Below are positions 3,525 through 25,469 of a stretch of DNA of 29,332 nucleotides, piece after piece. The translations under genes were made by a program, and so were the position numbers. Source of the DNA: an uncultured Pseudomonadales bacterium (GTDB lineage: Bacteria > Patescibacteriota > Microgenomatia > UBA1400 > CAYNFZ01); assembly GCA_964396725.1 (NCBI GenBank), contig CAYNFZ010000002.1, positions 1 to 29,332 of the forward strand. The letters are read 5' to 3'. The notes under the pieces are model-generated. The model saw nothing but the letters and a program-made list of their open reading frames with translations. It was not told the origin of the DNA and searched no databases. Numbering within the stretch: the stretch's first letter is position 1; every line of letters starts with the position of its first letter.

Positions 3525-4532
3525 AGAGAGGGTGAGGGTGATTTCTTCTGGAATGAGCCAGCGATGATTGGCAAAAGTCCATTCGATCAGTTGAGATGAT
3601 TCTTGGAAGCGATCTTTACTGGCTAAGACTACGGTGATGATTTGGTGGTTATCGCGGGTAGTGCTAGTGATGAGGCATTCGCCGGCATTTTCGGTCCAGC
3701 CGGTTTTGACGCCGTTGACTCCTGTGAGAGAACCAAGGAGTTCGTTGGTGGAAACGAGATGGTGGGTGTAGTGATTATCGAGGCTGTTGAGGGTGATGGA
3801 AGGGGTGGAGACAATGTGAGAGAAGACTGGGTGGGAAAGGGCGTATTGAGTCAGAAGAGCAAGGTTTTTGGCGGTACTGACATGGCCGGGAGATTCGACT
3901 CCAGAGACGTTTTTGAATTGGGTGTTGGTAAGGTGAAGAGTATGAGCTTTCTGGTTCATGGCATCAATAAAGCCTAGGTATCCGTCATGGGGATAGGAAA
4001 GGGCGAGGGCGAGGGCGGCGTCGTTTCCAGAGGCAACCAGAGTACCGTAGAGGAGATCTTCAACGGTAAGTCGTTCGCCGCGGGTGAGTTTCATGGTATG
4101 GCCGATAGTGCGTTCTTCTTCGGTGATAGTGATGACTTGATCTAGAGGGTATGTGTCGAGGGCGACCAAGGCAGTCATAATCTTAGTGGTGGAAGCGGGG
4201 AGAAGTGGTTGGTTGATGTTTTTCTGGAAAAGAATAGTGGATGAGGAGACATCGAACACAATAGCAGAGAGACTGGTTAGCGATGGGGGTTGGATGAGGG
4301 AGTGGTTGATGGGAATGGAAGGTGAAGAAGGCAGAAGGGTGGGAGGAGGGGTTTGAGGAGTGGGGGTAGGTTGGGCGGTTTGGGAGGAAGAGGCTTGATG
4401 GATCATGGTAATGATCAAGATAATAAAGGCGATGAGAAGGTATAGACTCAGACTTAGTTGGAGAAAAGGGAATGGCGAAGTTGGAGACTTGGAAGAGGGT
4501 TTGGACGATGATGTAGTTTTTGTTTGAGCCAT
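3495..4532 (-). CDS. D-alanyl-D-alanine carboxypeptidase (peptidase S11)
   Basis: Penicillin-binding motifs SxxK (ASTTKIMT), SxN (SGNDAA) and KTG (VKTGWTENAG). N-terminal TM anchor and PT-rich linker. The 3' end overlaps the convergent gene by 30 nt. Confidence 0.93.
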   Translation of the reverse strand: MAQTKTTSSSKPSSKSPTSPFPFLQLSLSLYLLIAFIILIITMIHQASSSQTAQPTPTPQTPPPTLLPSSPSIPINHSLIQPPSLTSLSAIVFDVSSSTILFQKNINQPLLPASTTKIMTALVALDTYPLDQVITITEEERTIGHTMKLTRGERLTVEDLLYGTLVASGNDAALALALSYPHDGYLGFIDAMNQKAHTLHLTNTQFKNVSGVESPGHVSTAKNLALLTQYALSHPVFSHIVSTPSITLNSLDNHYTHHLVSTNELLGSLTGVNGVKTGWTENAGECLITSTTRDNHQIITVVLASKDRFQESSQLIEWTFANHRWLIPEEITLTLSSLPTTSLLL

Positions 4533-4582: not shown

Positions 4583-6418
4583 TTATTTGGAGAAGCTGCC
4601 GGTTTGAGGTTGTTCGGCGCGAAGATAGTCGGAGAGAGACATGGAGATGGTGTGATCGTGTACGCCGGGGTTGAAGTTGATGGTGGTTTGTTGAGTCAAG
4701 GCTTTGTCTATGAAGGTGGGGAGATTAAAAAGAGATCCGAATGGGGGAACGGCTCCGATTTTAACTCCAATTGTTTGTTCGACTTCTTCAGGTGAAGCCA
4801 GGCGGAGGTCGTGAATGTGGTGGAGTTGTTTTAATGCTTTTGTATCGACTTTGGTGGCGGCGGAGACGACCACAAGAATGGGGGATTTATCGGCGATCAT
4901 GACTAAGGCCTTGGCTCCGGTGGCAAGACTAGCGCCACGAACACGAGCGGCTTCCTCAGAGGTATGGACTGGTTGGTGAGAAGTAAGAGAGTAGGGGATG
5001 TTCAAGGAGTCGAGTTTGGATTTGAGTTGATCGAGGACGGAGCCGGAGGATGGGGTTTGATTGAGAGAGATGCCGAGTTCTAAGAGTTGAGCGGGATCGA
5101 GAACTGAGGGTGCATCCATGACGGAGGTACGGCCACGACCTGTTTGGGGAAAAGCTTGGACTTCGCGAATGTATTCTTCTCCTAGATGAGCCATGAGTAA
5201 TCGTTCGAAGCCATGGGCACAACCGCCGTGGGGTGGAGTGCCGAAGGAGAAGGCGTCGAGCATGTGGCCAAATTTTTGGTCGATTTGGCGATCTTGGTAA
5301 CCCATGATTTGGAAGACACTACGGAGAACTTCGGGCTTGTGGGCGCGGATACTGCCACCAGCAACCTCGAGACCGTTGCATACGAGGTCGTATTGGTTGG
5401 TAATAATTTGATCGATGTTTTGTTGGTTGAGGAGCCAATCGAGGTGGTCGTTTATGGGTTGAGAGAAGGGGTTGTGGGTGAAGGTCCAAGATCCGTTTTC
5501 GGTTTTTTCGAAGAACGGAAAATCGATAACCCAAGCGAAAGAAAGAGTGCCGGCTTGTTTTTCTGTTTCGGTTCTCAAGTCGAATTTGTCAGCACCGTAT
5601 TTTTCCATGGCTTGTTGGTAGGTAACGACGGGGAAGGGAGTGGAGGCAATATTGGCATCAATTTGTTGACAAGCATGAATGATCATTTGTTCGATGAGGT
5701 TCATGACATCTTCTCGAGAAACGAAACTCATTTCCAGGTCGATTTGGGTGTGCTCAAAGGCGCGATCGGCACGGGGATCTTCATCTCGTAAACAACGGGC
5801 AACCTGGAAATAGCGTTCGAAACCAGCGGTCATGAGTAATTGTTTGTATTGTTGAGGGCTTTGAGGAAGAGCGAAGAATTTACCGGGTTGAAGTCGACTG
5901 GGGACAACAAAGTCGCGTGAACCCTCGGGGGTAGATTTGGTAAGTATAGGAGTTTCGATTTCGGTGAAATTTTGGGAGAAGAGATATTCACGAGCGGCTT
6001 TGATGTAAGCGGAGCGAAGTTTGATGTTTTTTTGGAGGCGTGGTCGACGTAGATCGAGGTAACGGTGTTTAAGTCTGATTTCTTCGTTAATATCGAGTCC
6101 GTCGGTATCTTTGGGGATGGGGAGGGGGGCTGAGGGGTTAAGGATAGAAAGGTGGGTGGCGACTAACTCAACTGTACCGGTAGCCATGTCAGGGTTGGTC
6201 ATGGACTTGGGGCGCAGGTTGATTTTTCCGATAACTTCGACGACGTCTTCTTGGGAGGCTTTGGTGTCTTTGGTGGTGACAACTTGGAGGATGCCAGAGC
6301 GATCTCTGATGTCGAGAAAAACGATTTTACCGTGATCGCGTCTGGTGTTGACCCAACCTTTGATAGTAACTGACTCGCCTACTTTGGCTGGCGTGTCGGT
6401 GATGAGTGTGCGATTCAT
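4583..6418 (-). CDS. aspS: Aspartate--tRNA ligase (compact) fused to a C-terminal YbaK/ProX (INS-superfamily) domain
   Basis: OB fold (GWVNTRRDHGKIVFLDIRDRSG), LKHRYLDLRR, motif 1, LPQSPQQYKQLLM, motif 2 (CLRDEDPRADR), motif 3 (PPHGGCAHGFERL). The last ~155 aa show H..V.T.EEAA...GAKAL...GAVPPFG...FNPG, the YbaK/ProX pattern. Confidence 0.97.
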   Translation of the reverse strand: MNRTLITDTPAKVGESVTIKGWVNTRRDHGKIVFLDIRDRSGILQVVTTKDTKASQEDVVEVIGKINLRPKSMTNPDMATGTVELVATHLSILNPSAPLPIPKDTDGLDINEEIRLKHRYLDLRRPRLQKNIKLRSAYIKAAREYLFSQNFTEIETPILTKSTPEGSRDFVVPSRLQPGKFFALPQSPQQYKQLLMTAGFERYFQVARCLRDEDPRADRAFEHTQIDLEMSFVSREDVMNLIEQMIIHACQQIDANIASTPFPVVTYQQAMEKYGADKFDLRTETEKQAGTLSFAWVIDFPFFEKTENGSWTFTHNPFSQPINDHLDWLLNQQNIDQIITNQYDLVCNGLEVAGGSIRAHKPEVLRSVFQIMGYQDRQIDQKFGHMLDAFSFGTPPHGGCAHGFERLLMAHLGEEYIREVQAFPQTGRGRTSVMDAPSVLDPAQLLELGISLNQTPSSGSVLDQLKSKLDSLNIPYSLTSHQPVHTSEEAARVRGASLATGAKALVMIADKSPILVVVSAATKVDTKALKQLHHIHDLRLASPEEVEQTIGVKIGAVPPFGSLFNLPTFIDKALTQQTTINFNPGVHDHTISMSLSDYLRAEQPQTGSFSK

Positions 6419-6676: not shown

Positions 6677-6705
6677 TTGACAGATCCATGTTAGCTGGTT
6701 ACAAT
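6677..6705 (+). promoter_or_regulatory. sigma70 promoter for the leader/orphan transcript
   Basis: TTGACA (6677-6682), 17 nt, TACAAT (6700-6705); near consensus. Confidence 0.8.
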
Positions 6706-6728
6706 GAGGGGCGGAAATTGAGGAAGCT

Positions 6729-6803
6729 ATGAATAATTGGCACTACACCATGATTAACCTTTCGCTTCAAGTCGGAAATGACTTGAGGAGGTTGGTGGTG
6801 TAA
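6729..6803 (+). CDS. Putative attenuator leader peptide, 24 aa
   Basis: MNNWHYTMINLSLQVGNDLRRLVV*, with a GAGGA SD at 6720-6724. It overlaps mutually exclusive hairpins. Confidence 0.6.
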   Translation: MNNWHYTMINLSLQVGNDLRRLVV

Positions 6804-6827
6804 AAGCGCCCCAGAAAGCAAGAAGCC

Positions 6828-6855
6828 AACCTCCTAAGCAAGCGGAGGTTTTTTT
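6828..6855 (+). terminator. Intrinsic terminator (attenuator) before the orphan gene
   Basis: AACCUCC (6828-6834) pairs with GGAGGUU (6844-6850); run of 7 T at 6849-6855. It lies between the promoter and the CDS. Confidence 0.85.
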
Positions 6856-6865
6856 GTGAGGAAGT

Positions 6866-21256: not shown

Positions 21257-22284
21257 GGAGTCGGAGAAGTAAGGTGGAGGCGGAAGAAGGAAAGGTCGCG
21301 GGAGACGACGGTGTTCCAGTTGGGCTGGAGATTGTGGTCGGCGTTGGGGTAGGTGTAGTAGGTGACGTCTAGTAACGGTTGATCCTGATCGTCGGTGAGA
21401 TCGGTTAATGTCTGGGCTAATTCGTCGGACCACTGGAGGGGAACGGCGTCGTCTTGGCCGCCTTGGTGAATTTGGATGGGAGCGGTGATTTGGTCGAAGT
21501 AACTGTGTATAGAGAAGAGATCAGTGTCGTAGTCTTGTTCGAATTCGGCGAGGGATTTTCTGAGCGCTTTGCCGTGGTCATCGAATTCGTCGGTGTAGTA
21601 GAGGATGTTGTAGGGGAAAGGTTTGCTAACTGGTGCCCAGAGAGTAGTGGGGTAGGGCTGACCGGTGATTTCGAGAACTGAGAGGGCAATTTGGCCGCCG
21701 TTGCTGTGACCCCAGAGGAAGATATTGTGAGGATCGATGTAATCTAGAGTTTTGACGGATTCAATAAGAGTGATGACGGTGACTGGTTTTTGAAGACGAG
21801 CGGCATAAGTGTTGATGTCGGCTGGATCTGAATCACCGTAACCGGCGAAATCGGGAGCAAGGGTGATGAAACCATTACGAGCAAAAACGGCGGCGGCGTT
21901 TTGGGTACCAACTCCGGTCTGGTAGATTTCAGGATCGATGAAACCGCGAAGCATGATGACTACCGGGGTGATGGTATCGGCGTAATCTTGGGGAAGATTG
22001 ATTTGGCCAGTGATGTGTTTACCTTCGGAGATGAAAGTAAATTGGTAGGCGGTGAATTGGGGTTGTTTGTCGATGATACCGATGATTTCGATAGGACTGG
22101 GGGAGATGGTGTGGGTGGCGAGGTTGTCGAAAGTGTATTCGTCTAGGGGGGTAGGTTTGGCTTTTTGATCGGTAAGGGGAGAAGTGATGGAAGGTCGAGG
22201 GGAGGATCGAAAGTACCAGATAGAAATACCAACTATACCAAGGAGGCTGAAGAAAGCGAACAAAAGAAAAAGTTGTTTGAGCAC
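21253..22284 (-). CDS. Membrane-anchored alpha/beta hydrolase (S9-like)
   Basis: APDFAGYGDS, nucleophile elbow WGHSNGG, GGQDDAV (Asp) and ADHN (His). N-terminal TM helix; GTG start. Confidence 0.88.
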   Translation of the reverse strand: MLKQLFLLFAFFSLLGIVGISIWYFRSSPRPSITSPLTDQKAKPTPLDEYTFDNLATHTISPSPIEIIGIIDKQPQFTAYQFTFISEGKHITGQINLPQDYADTITPVVIMLRGFIDPEIYQTGVGTQNAAAVFARNGFITLAPDFAGYGDSDPADINTYAARLQKPVTVITLIESVKTLDYIDPHNIFLWGHSNGGQIALSVLEITGQPYPTTLWAPVSKPFPYNILYYTDEFDDHGKALRKSLAEFEQDYDTDLFSIHSYFDQITAPIQIHQGGQDDAVPLQWSDELAQTLTDLTDDQDQPLLDVTYYTYPNADHNLQPNWNTVVSRDLSFFRLHLTSPTP

Positions 22285-22394
22285 TCTAGCTATATGTAGC
22301 TGTTAATGAGGTGCAGGAAGGAGCGGGTTTATTTTAGCAAGAGAAACAAGATAAAGCGGCCGAAGTTACTAGCAGTTGGTATACTAAAAGGTTA

Positions 22395-22946
22395 ATGGAG
22401 TACCATACACTGGAGTTGTGCGGATTAAGGCGGGAGTTGCCACTGGTGTATGTGGCGAAGAAAACTCGACTGGCACAGTGGTCGATGCTGGGAGATGTAG
22501 AGCTGGTGGATAAATTGGCTGATGAGTTGGAAAAGATTTTGAAACAATTTAAGTTTGAGTATTTGGTAGCTCCTGAAGTCAGGGTGTTGCCCTTGGTGCA
22601 TGGAATAGCTTTAAGGTTGGGTCAAAAAACATTTGTAGTTTGTCGAAGATCGGTTAAACCCTATATGGTTGATCCGGTAATACTTAAACCACTGCCCCAC
22701 TTTCCCAAACATGTGGCGCAAATGGTGATTGATGGTAGAGATGTTAAGTTGGTAGAGGGGAGGCGGGTGGTGGTGATTGATGATGTGGTATCAACGGGGG
22801 TAACGATGAGGATGATGACAAAATTGATGGAGAAAGTAGGGGCGAAAGTGGTGAAGTTGGTGGGGGTGATTAAGCAAGGAAAGCAGTTTGATGATTTGGC
22901 AGAAATGATAAATCTGGGAGAGTTACCGATTTTTAAAGATGTGTGA
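22395..22946 (+). CDS. Type I phosphoribosyltransferase (adenine PRTase-like)
   Basis: PRPP-binding loop VVVIDDVVSTGVTM. N-terminal LCGLRRELPL pattern of APRT-like proteins. Extended -10 TGGTATACT at 22377-22385. Confidence 0.88.
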   Translation: MEYHTLELCGLRRELPLVYVAKKTRLAQWSMLGDVELVDKLADELEKILKQFKFEYLVAPEVRVLPLVHGIALRLGQKTFVVCRRSVKPYMVDPVILKPLPHFPKHVAQMVIDGRDVKLVEGRRVVVIDDVVSTGVTMRMMTKLMEKVGAKVVKLVGVIKQGKQFDDLAEMINLGELPIFKDV

Positions 22947-22953
22947 GTGTGGC

Positions 22954-22982
22954 TTGACTTTCGGGGATATAAGCGTCAAAGT
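22954..22982 (+). promoter_or_regulatory. Weak putative sigma70 promoter for the nucleosidase/BMP operon
   Basis: TTGACT (22954-22959), 17 nt, CAAAGT (22977-22982). The -10 deviates at its first base. Confidence 0.4.
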
Positions 22983-23026
22983 GAATGGGTAACAGGTAAA
23001 TACCTCTTTCCTGGAGAGGAAAATAA

Positions 23027-23077
23027 ATGAATAACAGGAAAAATATTTTGGTTTGTGTTGTATTTGTGACCCGCTAG
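23027..23077 (+). CDS. Putative leader peptide, 16 aa
   Basis: MNNRKNILVCVVFVTR*, with a GGAGAGGA SD upstream. The stop codon lies in the loop of the terminator hairpin. Confidence 0.5.
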   Translation: MNNRKNILVCVVFVTR

Positions 23078-23090
23078 AGGCGGGTTTTTT
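23068..23090 (+). terminator. Intrinsic terminator in the 5' leader of the nucleosidase gene
   Basis: GACCCGC-UAGAG-GCGGGU followed by U-tract (T run 23085-23090). Confidence 0.85.
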
Positions 23091-23228
23091 GATGGGAAGA
23101 GGAGTACTTTAACAAGTCAAGCTAAGGATGGGTACTGGCTTGCTTGGGGGCGATGAGACCAGGATATGATCGTGGTCTTTTTGCCCCGAAGCAAGAATGG
23201 TTGGGGCTTAGTTCATGGGAGGTTAACC

Positions 23229-24173
23229 ATGAAACGCTTTGCTTACGGTGTGTGGATTTTGGTTGTAGTGGCGATGCTGACATTAGCATCGGTGGGAGGC
23301 GTAGTGTTGAGTCAGGAAAGTCGGCTGCTGGACGACACGCCGCGGTTGGCAGTGATAAGCGCTTTCGATTCTGAATTGCAGTTACTGCTAGCTGAAGCTG
23401 AGATTGATGAAGTTCATACCCTCTATGGAGTGTCGTACCACGTAGGGCGCCTTCGAGGGAATGATGTGGTGATGTTTTTGTCGGGCGTGAGCATGGTCAA
23501 CGCAGCGATGACAACCGAGCGGGCGCTGAATAATTTCAACGTGGATCGGATTCTGTTTTCTGGCATCGCCGGAGGGGTGAATCCGGAGCTGAATATCGGG
23601 GATGTGGTGATTCCGGTTCAGTATGGCCAGTATTTGGAAGCGTACTTTGCTCGGGAGATTGAGGGAGAATTTATGCCTCCCGTGTGGTGGACTCCGGAAT
23701 TTCCAAACTACGGGATGATGTTCCCCAGCTCGGTGAGCGTGATTGATCTGGAAGCTGAGGCCCCCAACACTTACCAAGAGCAGTTCTGGTTCCCGGTGGA
23801 CGAAGAGATGTACGAGGTAGCCTCTTCGTTGGATGTGGATTTGGATCAATGCACGGCAGATGGGGTGTGCTTGAGTGTCGATCCGGTCCTGGTGGTGGGT
23901 GGTAACGGGGTTTCCGGCCAGGCGTTCGTAGATAATGCCGAGTTCCGGGAATTTACCTTTAACACTTTTGGGGCCAATGTGCTGGAGATGGAAACGGCCG
24001 CGATTGCCCAAGTGGCGGCTTCTCATGGGATTCCATACCTGGCAGTCAGGTCACTAAGTGACCTGGCAGGTGGAGGTGAGGGGGAGAATGAGATCGGCAC
24101 CTTTTTCCAACTGGCCTCGGATAACTCGGCAAAAGTATTGCTGGCCTTTTTGGAGGCCTGGTCGGAAATGTAA
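23229..24173 (+). CDS. Exported MTA/SAH nucleosidase-like protein (PNP_UDP_1 family)
   Basis: AVISAFDSEL, SGVSMVNAA, FSGIAGG, IGDVVIP, GVSGQAF, EMETAAIAQV, RSLSDLAG. Sec signal MKRFAYGVWILVVVAMLTLA. Start reassigned to 23229 (GGAGG SD). Confidence 0.88.
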   Translation: MKRFAYGVWILVVVAMLTLASVGGVVLSQESRLLDDTPRLAVISAFDSELQLLLAEAEIDEVHTLYGVSYHVGRLRGNDVVMFLSGVSMVNAAMTTERALNNFNVDRILFSGIAGGVNPELNIGDVVIPVQYGQYLEAYFAREIEGEFMPPVWWTPEFPNYGMMFPSSVSVIDLEAEAPNTYQEQFWFPVDEEMYEVASSLDVDLDQCTADGVCLSVDPVLVVGGNGVSGQAFVDNAEFREFTFNTFGANVLEMETAAIAQVAASHGIPYLAVRSLSDLAGGGEGENEIGTFFQLASDNSAKVLLAFLEAWSEM

Positions 24174-24180
24174 ATCCGAG

Positions 24181-24212
24181 AGAGTTGGGGCAGAAGTATT
24201 TGTTCCAACTCT
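24181..24212 (+). other. Intercistronic stem-loop
   Basis: AGAGUUGG (24181-24188) pairs with CCAACUCU (24205-24212), extended by GGCAGA/UUUGUU wobble pairs. No U-tract follows. Confidence 0.5.
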
Positions 24213-24251
24213 AGATTCTTTCGTATCTGAATGAACGAAATGGAGAATGAG

Positions 24252-25469
24252 ATGAAACGCAACTGGTGGACTGTAGTTGTTTTGGTGGCAGTGATTATGT
24301 CTGCCATGGGGGTAATGGCCCAAACGGATGAGTTTGTGTTTGGGGTGGTGTTGGTTGGTCCGCGCAATGATCATGGCTGGAGTGAGGCGCATTTCGTGGC
24401 GGGTGAGTATGTGGAAGAACTGGTTGAAGATACTCGCATGGTCTTTTTTGAAAGCCTAAACCCAGCGGATGCTCCGGAAACCACACTGGAGCAGGTGGTG
24501 GAAGAAATGATTGCGGAAGGAGCGCAACTGATCTTTACTACCTCGGATGAATTTGAAGAAGACACGCTGGCGGTGGCTGAGAAGTATCCTGAAGTGCTGT
24601 TTGTGAATATTTCAGGGGATGATGCCCTAACTGGTGAAGCTCCCGAAAACCTGAGTAACTTGATGGGAGCGATGGAATGGGGCAAAGAGATCGCCGGATG
24701 TGCTGCGGCCTTGGCCACTGAAACTGGGAAGATCGGCTATTTAGGACCGCTGATTAACTTCGAGACCCGGCGATTGGCTTCGAGTGCGTATCTGGGAGCC
24801 CGCTACTGCTACGAGAATTACCGGGGGTTGGATCCGGATGAGCTGGAATTCACAGTAACCTGGATTGGGTTCTGGTTTAACATCCCCGGCTTTACCCTGG
24901 ATCCAACTGAGGAGACCCAGCGTTTCTATGACCAAGGAACGGATGTGGTGATTAGTGGCATTGATACCACTGAAGCCCTGGTGGTCGCGGGGCAACGGGC
25001 CGAAGAAGGTGATGCTGTCTGGGCCGTCCCCTATGATTTCGAAGGAGCCTGTGGCGAAGCTCCTGATATTTGCTTGGGTGTCCCCTACTTTAACTGGGGG
25101 CCTGGATATACGCGTCTGGTGGAAGATGCTATGTCTGGAGACTGGGAGCAGAGTTGGGTTTGGGATACGCCCGACTGGGATGGCCTGACAGATAACGATA
25201 AGACTGCTGTAGGCTGGTTCAGCGGGGGTGGCTTGGACGAAGAGCAGCTATCCCAGATTGACGAGTTCATCTCTTTCCTGGCCGAGCAAGACTCTGGGAA
25301 TATCGTCCCGGAAACTCTTGATGATTTTGGTTTGGGCTTGTGGGTTGGGCCGCTGAACCTTCAAGATGGAACCGTGCTGGCTGAGGAGGGGGAAGTGGTG
25401 TCGGCGCGCGACGTCTGGTATCTGCCGCAGTTACTGGCGGGTATGACGGGTGATAGTTCGGCACAGTAA
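24252..25469 (+). CDS. BMP-family (PnrA/TmpC-like) purine-nucleoside-binding protein
   Basis: VLVGPRNDHGWSEAH, LIFTTS, KYP.V.F...SG, GKIGYLGP, WIGFWF.P, DVV...IDT. Sec signal with no lipobox Cys. Start reassigned to 24252 (GGAG SD). Confidence 0.92.
   Translation: MKRNWWTVVVLVAVIMSAMGVMAQTDEFVFGVVLVGPRNDHGWSEAHFVAGEYVEELVEDTRMVFFESLNPADAPETTLEQVVEEMIAEGAQLIFTTSDEFEEDTLAVAEKYPEVLFVNISGDDALTGEAPENLSNLMGAMEWGKEIAGCAAALATETGKIGYLGPLINFETRRLASSAYLGARYCYENYRGLDPDELEFTVTWIGFWFNIPGFTLDPTEETQRFYDQGTDVVISGIDTTEALVVAGQRAEEGDAVWAVPYDFEGACGEAPDICLGVPYFNWGPGYTRLVEDAMSGDWEQSWVWDTPDWDGLTDNDKTAVGWFSGGGLDEEQLSQIDEFISFLAEQDSGNIVPETLDDFGLGLWVGPLNLQDGTVLAEEGEVVSARDVWYLPQLLAGMTGDSSAQ

Follow-up and report, generated by a model that had tools for sequence, protein, structure and literature searches.

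In the genome of an uncultured bacterium of the Patescibacteria (class Microgenomatia), 282 nt separate an apt-like phosphoribosyltransferase (PRTase) gene from the gene of an exported nucleosidase, and within this region a short open reading frame (ORF) runs into an intrinsic terminator. This raises the question of whether the terminator simply closes the PRTase gene or belongs to a leader that controls the genes behind it and, if so, by which signal. We analysed the locus in the whole stretch of 29,332 nt available for it (contig 2 of the genome, CAYNFZ010000002.1 of assembly GCA_964396725.1; hereafter the window), starting from an earlier sequence-only reading, in which the region had been taken for a three-hairpin switch that senses nucleotide pools or for an unrecognised riboswitch or protein-binding leader. 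The host genome has 1.31 Mb and is 97.6% complete, and all relatives compared with it have genomes of ~1 Mb; labelled relatives are Woesebacteria, Gottesmanbacteria and ‘Patescibacteria group’. The sequencing runs listed for this sequence are all DNA runs, and four of them yielded identical contigs. Patescibacteria, whose genomes are minimal, rely on the scavenging of nucleotides, and to our knowledge almost nothing is known on gene regulation in them. Judged from the comparison with related loci, the intergenic region, which folds far more stably than shuffled sequences (z = −6.35), very probably carries a conserved structured cis-regulatory RNA that stands before purine synthesis and salvage genes in Microgenomatia-class Patescibacteria. 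That this element is a small-molecule riboswitch is probable as well, with less assurance.

A covarying pseudoknot in Microgenomatia leaders

A DNA-level search with the 282-nt intergenic region in 40 relatives returned the window itself only, and thus homologues were reached through the flanking proteins. The nucleosidase as search anchor led mostly to loci of Chloroflexota and Proteobacteria that lack the motif. Anchoring on the PRTase, with 231 homologues, worked, since PRTase homologues of 44–70% identity are followed by a similar leader in many genomes; these leaders were taken from contigs and from species genomes. Covariance models R1 and R2 were built from these PRTase-adjacent leaders and then used to find further copies that do not adjoin a PRTase gene (L139b, L162, L166 and L168). 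In total, 29 leaders with a common layout were annotated by hand, all of them from Microgenomatia-class Patescibacteria. R1 and R2 score the window motif with 64 and 60 bits (up to 68 bits overall) and find exactly one copy in the host genome. They match in 5 of 151 sampled genomes of the class; among 151 genomes sampled across the phylum, they found no copy besides that of the host genome.

The core of the motif consists of a hairpin, P1, whose loop pairs with a strand farther downstream (P2) across an A-rich linker, L3 (Table 1). MAFFT alignments A1 and A2 did not hold P1 and P2 in register, and therefore P1 was assessed on a covariance-model alignment and P2 by an alignment-free permutation test. 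On alignment A5 (17 sequences), 98.8% of the P1 cells are paired, and all five pairs have changed on both sides. Across the 29 leaders P1 has 4–6 bp of differing sequence, e.g. CCCUU/AAGGG, UCCCG/CGGGA and GUCUUG/CAAGAC. Likewise, the P2 strands found elsewhere covary (ACCGUU/AACGGU, UACCUUU/AAAGGUG, UUAUCC/GGAUAA, UUAAGCC/GGCUUAA and UGCCU/AGGCA), and in 24 non-redundant leaders the summed complementarity of cognate loop and tail was 134, compared with 105.3 ± 4.7 for permuted partners (0 of 100,000 permutations). Jointly, P1 and P2 pair in 91.7% of cells on A5, compared with 74.7 ± 2.0 for shuffles (0 of 500), and the covariation score of 0.549 on A5 falls to 0.144 or less if partners are slid by 1–3 columns. 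Because both helices covary, the element is an H-type pseudoknot with a core of ~55 nt. Its linker measures 13–20 nt in 23 of the 29 leaders. It is preceded by a conserved single-stranded 5′ segment, included in R1 and R2, in which, throughout alignments A1–A5, CAG does not vary and AAUA hardly does; for a possible helix between this segment and L3, inspected by eye on A5, too little variation was left.

These helices differ from the register proposed in the sequence-only reading, namely an AGGU(AAAU)ACCU hairpin opposing an antiterminator and a UUUCCU(GGAG)AGGAAA hairpin hiding the Shine–Dalgarno (SD) sequence of the leader ORF. Both hairpins can be drawn in the window and belong to the nested minimum-free-energy (MFE) fold of its sequence, but covariation supports CCUCU/AGAGG and UUCCUG/CAGGAA in place of the three-hairpin switch, and no RNA antiterminator is conserved. 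The first hairpin (22994–23005; −2.4 kcal/mol) overlaps the covarying P1 and is incompatible with it. The second is a one-genome alternative register of P1, of which the SD-containing region recurs: the P1 3′ strand and G13–G14 form the SD-like GGAGAGG of the leader ORF. A repeat of TAACAGG, also pointed out earlier, is present; one copy belongs to the conserved 5′ ACAG segment, the other to the P2 3′ strand.

The suggestion of an unrecognised riboswitch unlike known aptamers, for which an Rfam scan had been called for, has held up so far. With Rfam 15 at gathering thresholds, the window and 20 homologous loci gave no family match, and at E ≤ 10 positions 22850–23300 of the window and 4060–4260 of L141 gave chance-level matches only, e.g. 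SraG, and Trp_leader via the terminator. The term fits because no known aptamer family matches.

Table 1. Positions in the window of the leader elements and flanking genes
Feature	Position	Strand	Details
Candidate sigma-70-type promoter	22954..22982	+	−35 TTGACT 22954–59, 17-nt spacer, −10 CAAAGT 22977–82
Conserved single-stranded 5′ segment	22990..23002	+	UAACAGGUAAAUA; consensus (A/U)ACAG-N3-AAUA; predicted transcript 5′ end
Hairpin P1	23003..23019	+	CCUCU 23003–07 / AGAGG 23015–19; 7-nt loop UUCCUGG
Pseudoknot helix P2	23008..23040	+	loop strand UUCCUG 23008–13 pairs with CAGGAA 23035–40
A-rich linker L3	23020–34	+	15 nt; conserved AUA(U/A)GAAY; holds the leader AUG
Leader ORF	23027–23077	+	16 codons, MNNRKNILVCVVFVTR*; AUG 23027–29 in L3, codons 3–5 are the P2 3′ strand; stop UAG 23075–77
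U/G-rich spacer	23044..23067	+	UAUUUUGGUUUGUGUUGUAUUUGUG; inside the leader ORF
Intrinsic terminator/attenuator	23068..23092	+	stem 23068–75/23079–86, core CCCGC/GCGGG, then UUUUUU (23085–90)
Apt-like PRTase (upstream)	22395..22946	+	NCBIfam NF005592, 168.6 bits (cutoff 143)
Exported PNP_UDP_1-family nucleosidase	23229–24173	+	Pfam PF01048, 5.6e-44
Bmp/PnrA-like nucleoside-binding protein	24231–25469	+	Pfam PF02608, 1.3e-9

A leader with a candidate promoter of its own and an ORF kept open up to the terminator

In at least 22 of the 29 leaders, a TTGAC-type hexamer is separated by 17 nt from a −10-like hexamer, and the latter ends mostly 4–12 nt before the CAG. In the window, such a candidate promoter lies between the PRTase gene and the motif, with a predicted transcription start at ~22988–22991; a stricter consensus scan of 22200–23400 found no promoter-like site there and did not call it. 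Hence, the leader would be a transcription unit of its own. The terminator that closes it is a stem of eight pairs (five of them G–C) with a loop of 3 nt, followed by six U (−12.1 kcal/mol), and a terminator scan of 22200–23400 found hairpin 23068–23086 as the sole terminator-like site. Stems of the type (U)CCCGC...GCGGG(A)U6 recur in about half of the homologous leaders, and the CCCGC-core stem is unique among the 60 terminator-like hairpins of the host genome; thus, the terminator seems to be inherited with the module or constrained in sequence.

It had been anticipated that the hairpin might merely terminate the PRTase gene and that the nucleosidase might have a start of its own farther downstream; all other features would then be due to chance. 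The distances would allow this, since the hairpin lies 120 nt past the PRTase stop and leaves 138 nt before the nucleosidase start. However, comparative data contradict it: the module recurs with covariation in 29 loci behind varied upstream genes, it has a promoter-like site between PRTase and motif, and before purF it ends 4–21 nt upstream of the start codon. Moreover, the consensus scan of 22200–23400 gave no promoter-like site. We consider this explanation extremely improbable, and a regulatory leader is supported instead.

The 16-codon ORF, the strong terminator and the UAG in its loop are present as the sequence-only reading had described them, and this geometry recurs in homologues. Of 25 terminator-type leaders, 23 have an AUG in the interval from P1 to the terminator, usually in the linker and 7–10 nt past the purine-rich P1 3′ strand. 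In 19 of these 23, the frame of the first AUG is open to within 13 nt of the stem, into the stem or beyond it, whereas each of the other two frames is open to the terminator in 7 of 23 leaders, and shuffles lead one to expect 7.9. The excess is significant (Poisson-binomial P ∼5e-6; Fisher test against the other frames, 8e-5), and also in the non-redundant set (15 of 19, with 6.8 expected; P = 5.5e-5). The stop codon lies inside the terminator hairpin in five leaders (the window, L147, L130, L166 and L162). The ORFs have 8–64 codons, their sequence is conserved only where the RNA motif dictates it, and no codon run recurs in the leader ORFs of homologues.

The spacers between the pseudoknot and the terminator, in which a U-rich run had been noticed, average 46% U in 24 leaders compared with 26% in the genome. 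In the window, the spacer pairs with 23023–23040 in the nested MFE fold and is able to pair with the A-rich L3; it is a possible pause region for RNA polymerase.

The open frame also bears on the idea that the product itself is what matters, i.e. that the region yields a stand-alone transcript of ~100 nt, a trans-acting small RNA or a micro-peptide mRNA, with downstream genes expressed independently. It would agree with the leader's own promoter, its strong terminator and the ORF being kept open, and some leader peptides are alike (L143 and L139b), with differences, judged by eye, mostly at third codon positions. On the other hand, neither the length nor the sequence of the ORF is conserved outside the RNA motif, and some copies have no ORF at all. 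In purF leaders, the start codon follows a few nucleotides past the U-tract, leaving no space for another promoter, and the guaB versions join the motif directly to the gene start. A stand-alone transcript is therefore very unlikely to be the function of the region.

The competing antiterminator of the sequence-only reading, formed by GGGUAACAGGUA (22987–22998) and UAUUUGUGACCC (23061–23072), does pair at 11 of 12 positions (two of them G–U), and the duplex has −12.9 kcal/mol in the window. Conservation of this pairing was not found: the corresponding values are mostly between −1 and −6 kcal/mol in 24 other terminator-type leaders, and cognate segments pair no better than non-cognate ones (P = 0.50). 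By structure evaluation the antiterminator reaches −8.5 kcal/mol with its GGG and +1.9 kcal/mol without it, and is thus weaker than the terminator. The GGG lies 5–7 nt past the −10 box, probably at or before the transcription start. A search for other partners of the terminator 5′ arm among upstream segments gave none that was consistently better than shuffles, with a mild tendency toward the P1 3′ strand.

An RNA-only switch made of these pairings, or a pyrBI-type attenuator without an aptamer, in which limiting nucleoside triphosphates cause pausing, would be in line with the nested MFE fold and, for the latter, with the conserved U-rich spacer and an ORF reaching the terminator as in pyrBI. 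Against the former stand the lack of conservation and the energies of the antiterminator as well as the conflict of the AGGU/ACCU hairpin with P1; pure pausing leaves the covarying pseudoknot and the terminator-less guaB versions unexplained, and sensing of UTP would fit a purine regulon poorly. In either form this model is quite unlikely. What stands of it is the expectation that the terminator is disturbed by a ribosome translating the short ORF, an idea backed by the frame kept open up to the terminator. Due to the fact that the open frame is conserved and no conserved RNA antiterminator could serve instead, a reading in which ribosomes are gated is favoured.

Downstream genes and expression platforms

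The genes behind the motif belong largely to purine metabolism. purF is found downstream in eight cases, i.e. leaders L141, L152, L153, L162, L166, L168 and L171 and the P0006 contig, which was counted from gene calls alone (a 155-nt gap between PRTase and purF) without checking the motif itself there. guaB follows in three leaders (L154, L155 and L156), a gene for a Bmp nucleoside-binding protein in the window and L145, and a nucleosidase gene, directly or past 1–2 ORFs, in the window, L021, L128 and L130. A gene without assigned function and then purA–purB follow in L169, an ABC ATPase-like start in L140, and the gene of an NMT1-like binding protein in L150. In the window, the nucleosidase and Bmp genes (23229..25469, + strand) are presumably controlled by the leader.

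In purF leaders, 4–21 nt lie between the terminator stem and the start codon. The gene can thus be transcribed by read-through only, and the hairpin is an attenuator. The guaB leaders have no terminator, and the P2 3′ strand overlaps the start codon (L155) or abuts it (L154 and L156). Folding must therefore block initiation there, which points to OFF logic. One core is combined with terminator platforms in most leaders, with two short-spacer platforms without ORF and with the guaB platforms. It is characteristic of a riboswitch class that one conserved core serves several platforms in a single pathway, and from the regulon alone we infer a purine base or nucleotide as ligand.

The three guaB leaders (genomes G384, G365 and G343) form a divergent subtype with UCAG-UACAAGA, a longer linker and sometimes an inserted hairpin. 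R1 and R2 did not detect this subtype in L154, L155 and L156, so that the models probably understate the breadth of the class.

In L150 (2342–3490), a motif copy stands before the gene of an NMT1/THI5-like binding protein. The xanthine (NMT1 motif) riboswitch, too, is associated with this gene family, and such a neighbour may hint at the ligand. Two further contigs deviate from the usual layout. In L129 (G243 contig 33, 2130–2184), P1 and P2 follow the PRTase gene without a terminator and are succeeded by several SD–AUG–stop mini-ORFs; the same genome holds a second, complete copy before purF (L166). Contig L139 carries two copies, at 4101–4156 and 5288–5343, the first preceding a 338-aa protein with a sigma-70 region-4/helix-turn-helix domain and the second preceding small ORFs and an IMPDH/GMP-reductase-like gene, an arrangement that may represent a regulatory cascade.

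The motif frequently adjoins a PRTase gene, and the PRTase gene itself is not found behind the motif. PRTase-fold proteins can be RNA-binding attenuation factors, as known for PyrR. Hence, a regulatory protein, either a PyrR-like action of the apt PRTase or another factor, might bind the pseudoknot or the conserved single-stranded nucleotides and control termination. As with PyrR binding-loop attenuators (RF00515), a PRTase gene adjoins a terminator-containing leader, and in the window the sequence UCCUGGAGAGG of the hairpin region bears a loose resemblance to the PyrR-loop consensus. Unlike in those attenuators, the PRTase belongs to the apt subfamily NF005592 (21.5 bits with the PyrR model, cutoff 138), RF00515 gave no match even at E ≤ 10, and the loop sequence varies. 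The P1 loop covaries with the downstream strand, a sign of RNA–RNA pairing and not of a protein recognition loop. Furthermore, the motif exists without an upstream PRTase gene (L162, L166 and L139b), and since it has a promoter of its own, the PRTase is not autoregulated by it. A protein-binding leader is accordingly an unlikely reading, if less so than those weighed above.

A model of pseudoknot-gated leader translation

We propose that 22954–23092 holds the promoter of the nucleosidase and Bmp genes together with their 5′ leader and that the pseudoknot would be an aptamer for a purine-related ligand such as guanine, hypoxanthine, xanthine or a nucleotide. The initiation region of the leader ORF falls wholly within the pseudoknot: P1 contributes the SD, the linker the AUG, and P2 codons 3–5. 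In the presence of ligand, the pseudoknot would be locked and the leader ORF untranslated, hairpin 23068–86 would form, and transcription would end at 23090. In its absence, a ribosome would load and trail RNA polymerase across the U-rich and possibly pause-prone spacer until it covers codons 14–16 and the UAG, i.e. the terminator's 5′ arm together with its loop. The terminator hairpin would then be blocked, and transcription would run on into the nucleosidase and Bmp genes.

The full mechanism, a purine-related OFF riboswitch in which the pseudoknot gates translation of the leader ORF and the ribosome prevents the terminator, is narrowly favoured in our assessment. It is quite possible, though we stop short of calling it probable, that the element constitutes an undescribed riboswitch class restricted to Microgenomatia of the Patescibacteria (candidate phyla radiation, CPR), a pseudoknot of ~55 nt that binds a purine-pathway metabolite and uses the ribosome as expression platform. 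Since no Rfam 15 family matches it, the element makes a good candidate for a riboswitch class not yet catalogued.

Several points weigh against this model. In the window, 138 nt and a hairpin of −41 kcal/mol separate the terminator from the nucleosidase start, and there may be a second promoter, a processing site or a second control step before the nucleosidase. The nested alternative hairpins are about as stable in the window as P1 and P2, and the SD sits in P1, so that translation would require P1 to open. Two terminator-type leaders with very short spacers, L021 and L151, have no AUG ORF, and 4 of the 23 first-AUG ORFs end 14–54 nt before the stem; ribosome coupling is therefore not the sole platform, and at least one other must exist. 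As for the data set, most instances were found by PRTase anchoring, and the association of PRTase and motif is inflated because the PRTase gene served as anchor. The statistics take related sequences as independent, with near-duplicates removed and deeper kinship remaining, and alignment A5 was fitted to P1.

Comparison with known regulatory leaders

The ligand of the preQ1-I riboswitch is a guanine-like base. Like that riboswitch (RF00522), the element is a very small H-type pseudoknot, with a P1 of 5 bp and a P2 formed from the loop and a strand after an A-rich tail; folding sequesters the SD or initiation region, and platforms of the terminator as well as of the translational type occur. 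The two differ in L3, which has 13–20 nt with AUA(U/A)GAAY here and ~6–7 nt in preQ1-I, in the additional conserved 5′ CAG..AAUA segment, and in the gene context, which is purine metabolism (purF, guaB, Bmp, nucleosidase) and not queuosine. RF00522 was matched neither at gathering thresholds in the window and the 20 loci nor at E ≤ 10 in 22850–23300 and in 4060–4260 of L141.

With regard to the regulon, the element resembles purine riboswitches (PMC9295807 and PMC12445698), which control de novo genes, salvage genes and nucleoside or base transporters, and the same OFF logic is expected. Their architecture is different: the purine riboswitches of Firmicutes, Guanine-II and Xanthine-II are three-way junctions on one scaffold (PMC12445698), whereas a single hairpin and a pseudoknot without a match to RF00167 are found here. 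A loop–loop contact is a further mark of the purine riboswitch. Another rare, lineage-restricted orphan riboswitch candidate located before purF is the Fibro-purF motif, a three-stem junction confined to Fibrobacter and to purF (PMC7668255). The element described here has a pseudoknot fold, a broader purine regulon and no Rfam match, in contrast to Fibro-purF (PMC7668255).

Regarding the expression platform, several precedents are related. The leader ORF of E. coli pyrBI and pyrE likewise extends into or through an intrinsic terminator behind a U-rich tract, and ribosomes close behind polymerase suppress intrinsic terminators in these leaders; the same is proposed for our element. The signal is UTP-dependent pausing in pyrBI and pyrE, whereas ribosome loading is apparently gated by a covarying pseudoknot here, before purine genes. 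Compared with the trp and his leader-peptide attenuators, a recurrent codon run and a conserved antiterminator are missing. Ribosome-suppressed intrinsic terminators are also treated in PMC5021804. In ppe2 of M. tuberculosis, a B12 riboswitch controls a short upstream ORF whose translation is needed downstream (PMC11260477). Riboswitch gating of an upstream ORF is the feature in common with ppe2, which works by termination–reinitiation and belongs to another aptamer class, an intrinsic terminator being proposed here (PMC11260477).

Full-text literature searches found no description of a natural riboswitch in Patescibacteria, nor of such a purine pseudoknot element, which is not proof of novelty. 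If the model is true, the element would show how Patescibacteria that keep genes for purine synthesis or uptake time their expression, and it could serve as a natural ligand-responsive part when genetic tools are built for such bacteria. It is a compact aptamer candidate of ~55 nt supported by covariation, and its clear regulon narrows the search for the ligand. Moreover, the core is frequently joined to an ORF that stays open into the terminator, which is suggestive of a hybrid between a riboswitch and a ribosome-mediated attenuator.

Further observations at the locus

In NCBIfam, the nucleosidase of the window is nearest to 5′-methylthioadenosine/S-adenosylhomocysteine (MTA/SAH) nucleosidases, while it is below the cutoff for most models. 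Its best relatives (55–62% identity) are labelled Chloroflexota/Anaerolineae and Proteobacteria, and among 200 other genomes of the order it occurs in only 3; horizontal acquisition would be consistent with this.

The stretch from the terminator to the nucleosidase gene contains a near-perfect extended hairpin of 57 nt (23139–23195), for which −41 kcal/mol was computed over 23130–23200. Its inner part (23154–23179) is followed by UUUUU and resembles a second terminator. It is single-copy in the genome, the only other match being a chance one of 14 nt.

Directly after the U-tract of the first terminator, a mini-ORF of six codons (23092–23112) reads AUG GGA AGA GGA GUA CUU UAA. The sequence after the terminator, UUUUUUG(U/A)UGG.., is alike in several genomes (the window, L143, L128, L146 and L139), and in purF leaders the start codon of the gene occupies the place of the mini-ORF; the terminator 3′ arm GCGGGA could serve as SD of the purF start. 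The mini-ORF of the window may be what remains of an earlier downstream gene whose place was taken by the nucleosidase cassette.

Another leader in the window, at 6677–6865, has an SD-AUGAAUAA start and a terminator and is not a copy of the pseudoknot motif. It has in common with the leader studied here the start AUGAAU, which is here part of the conserved linker.

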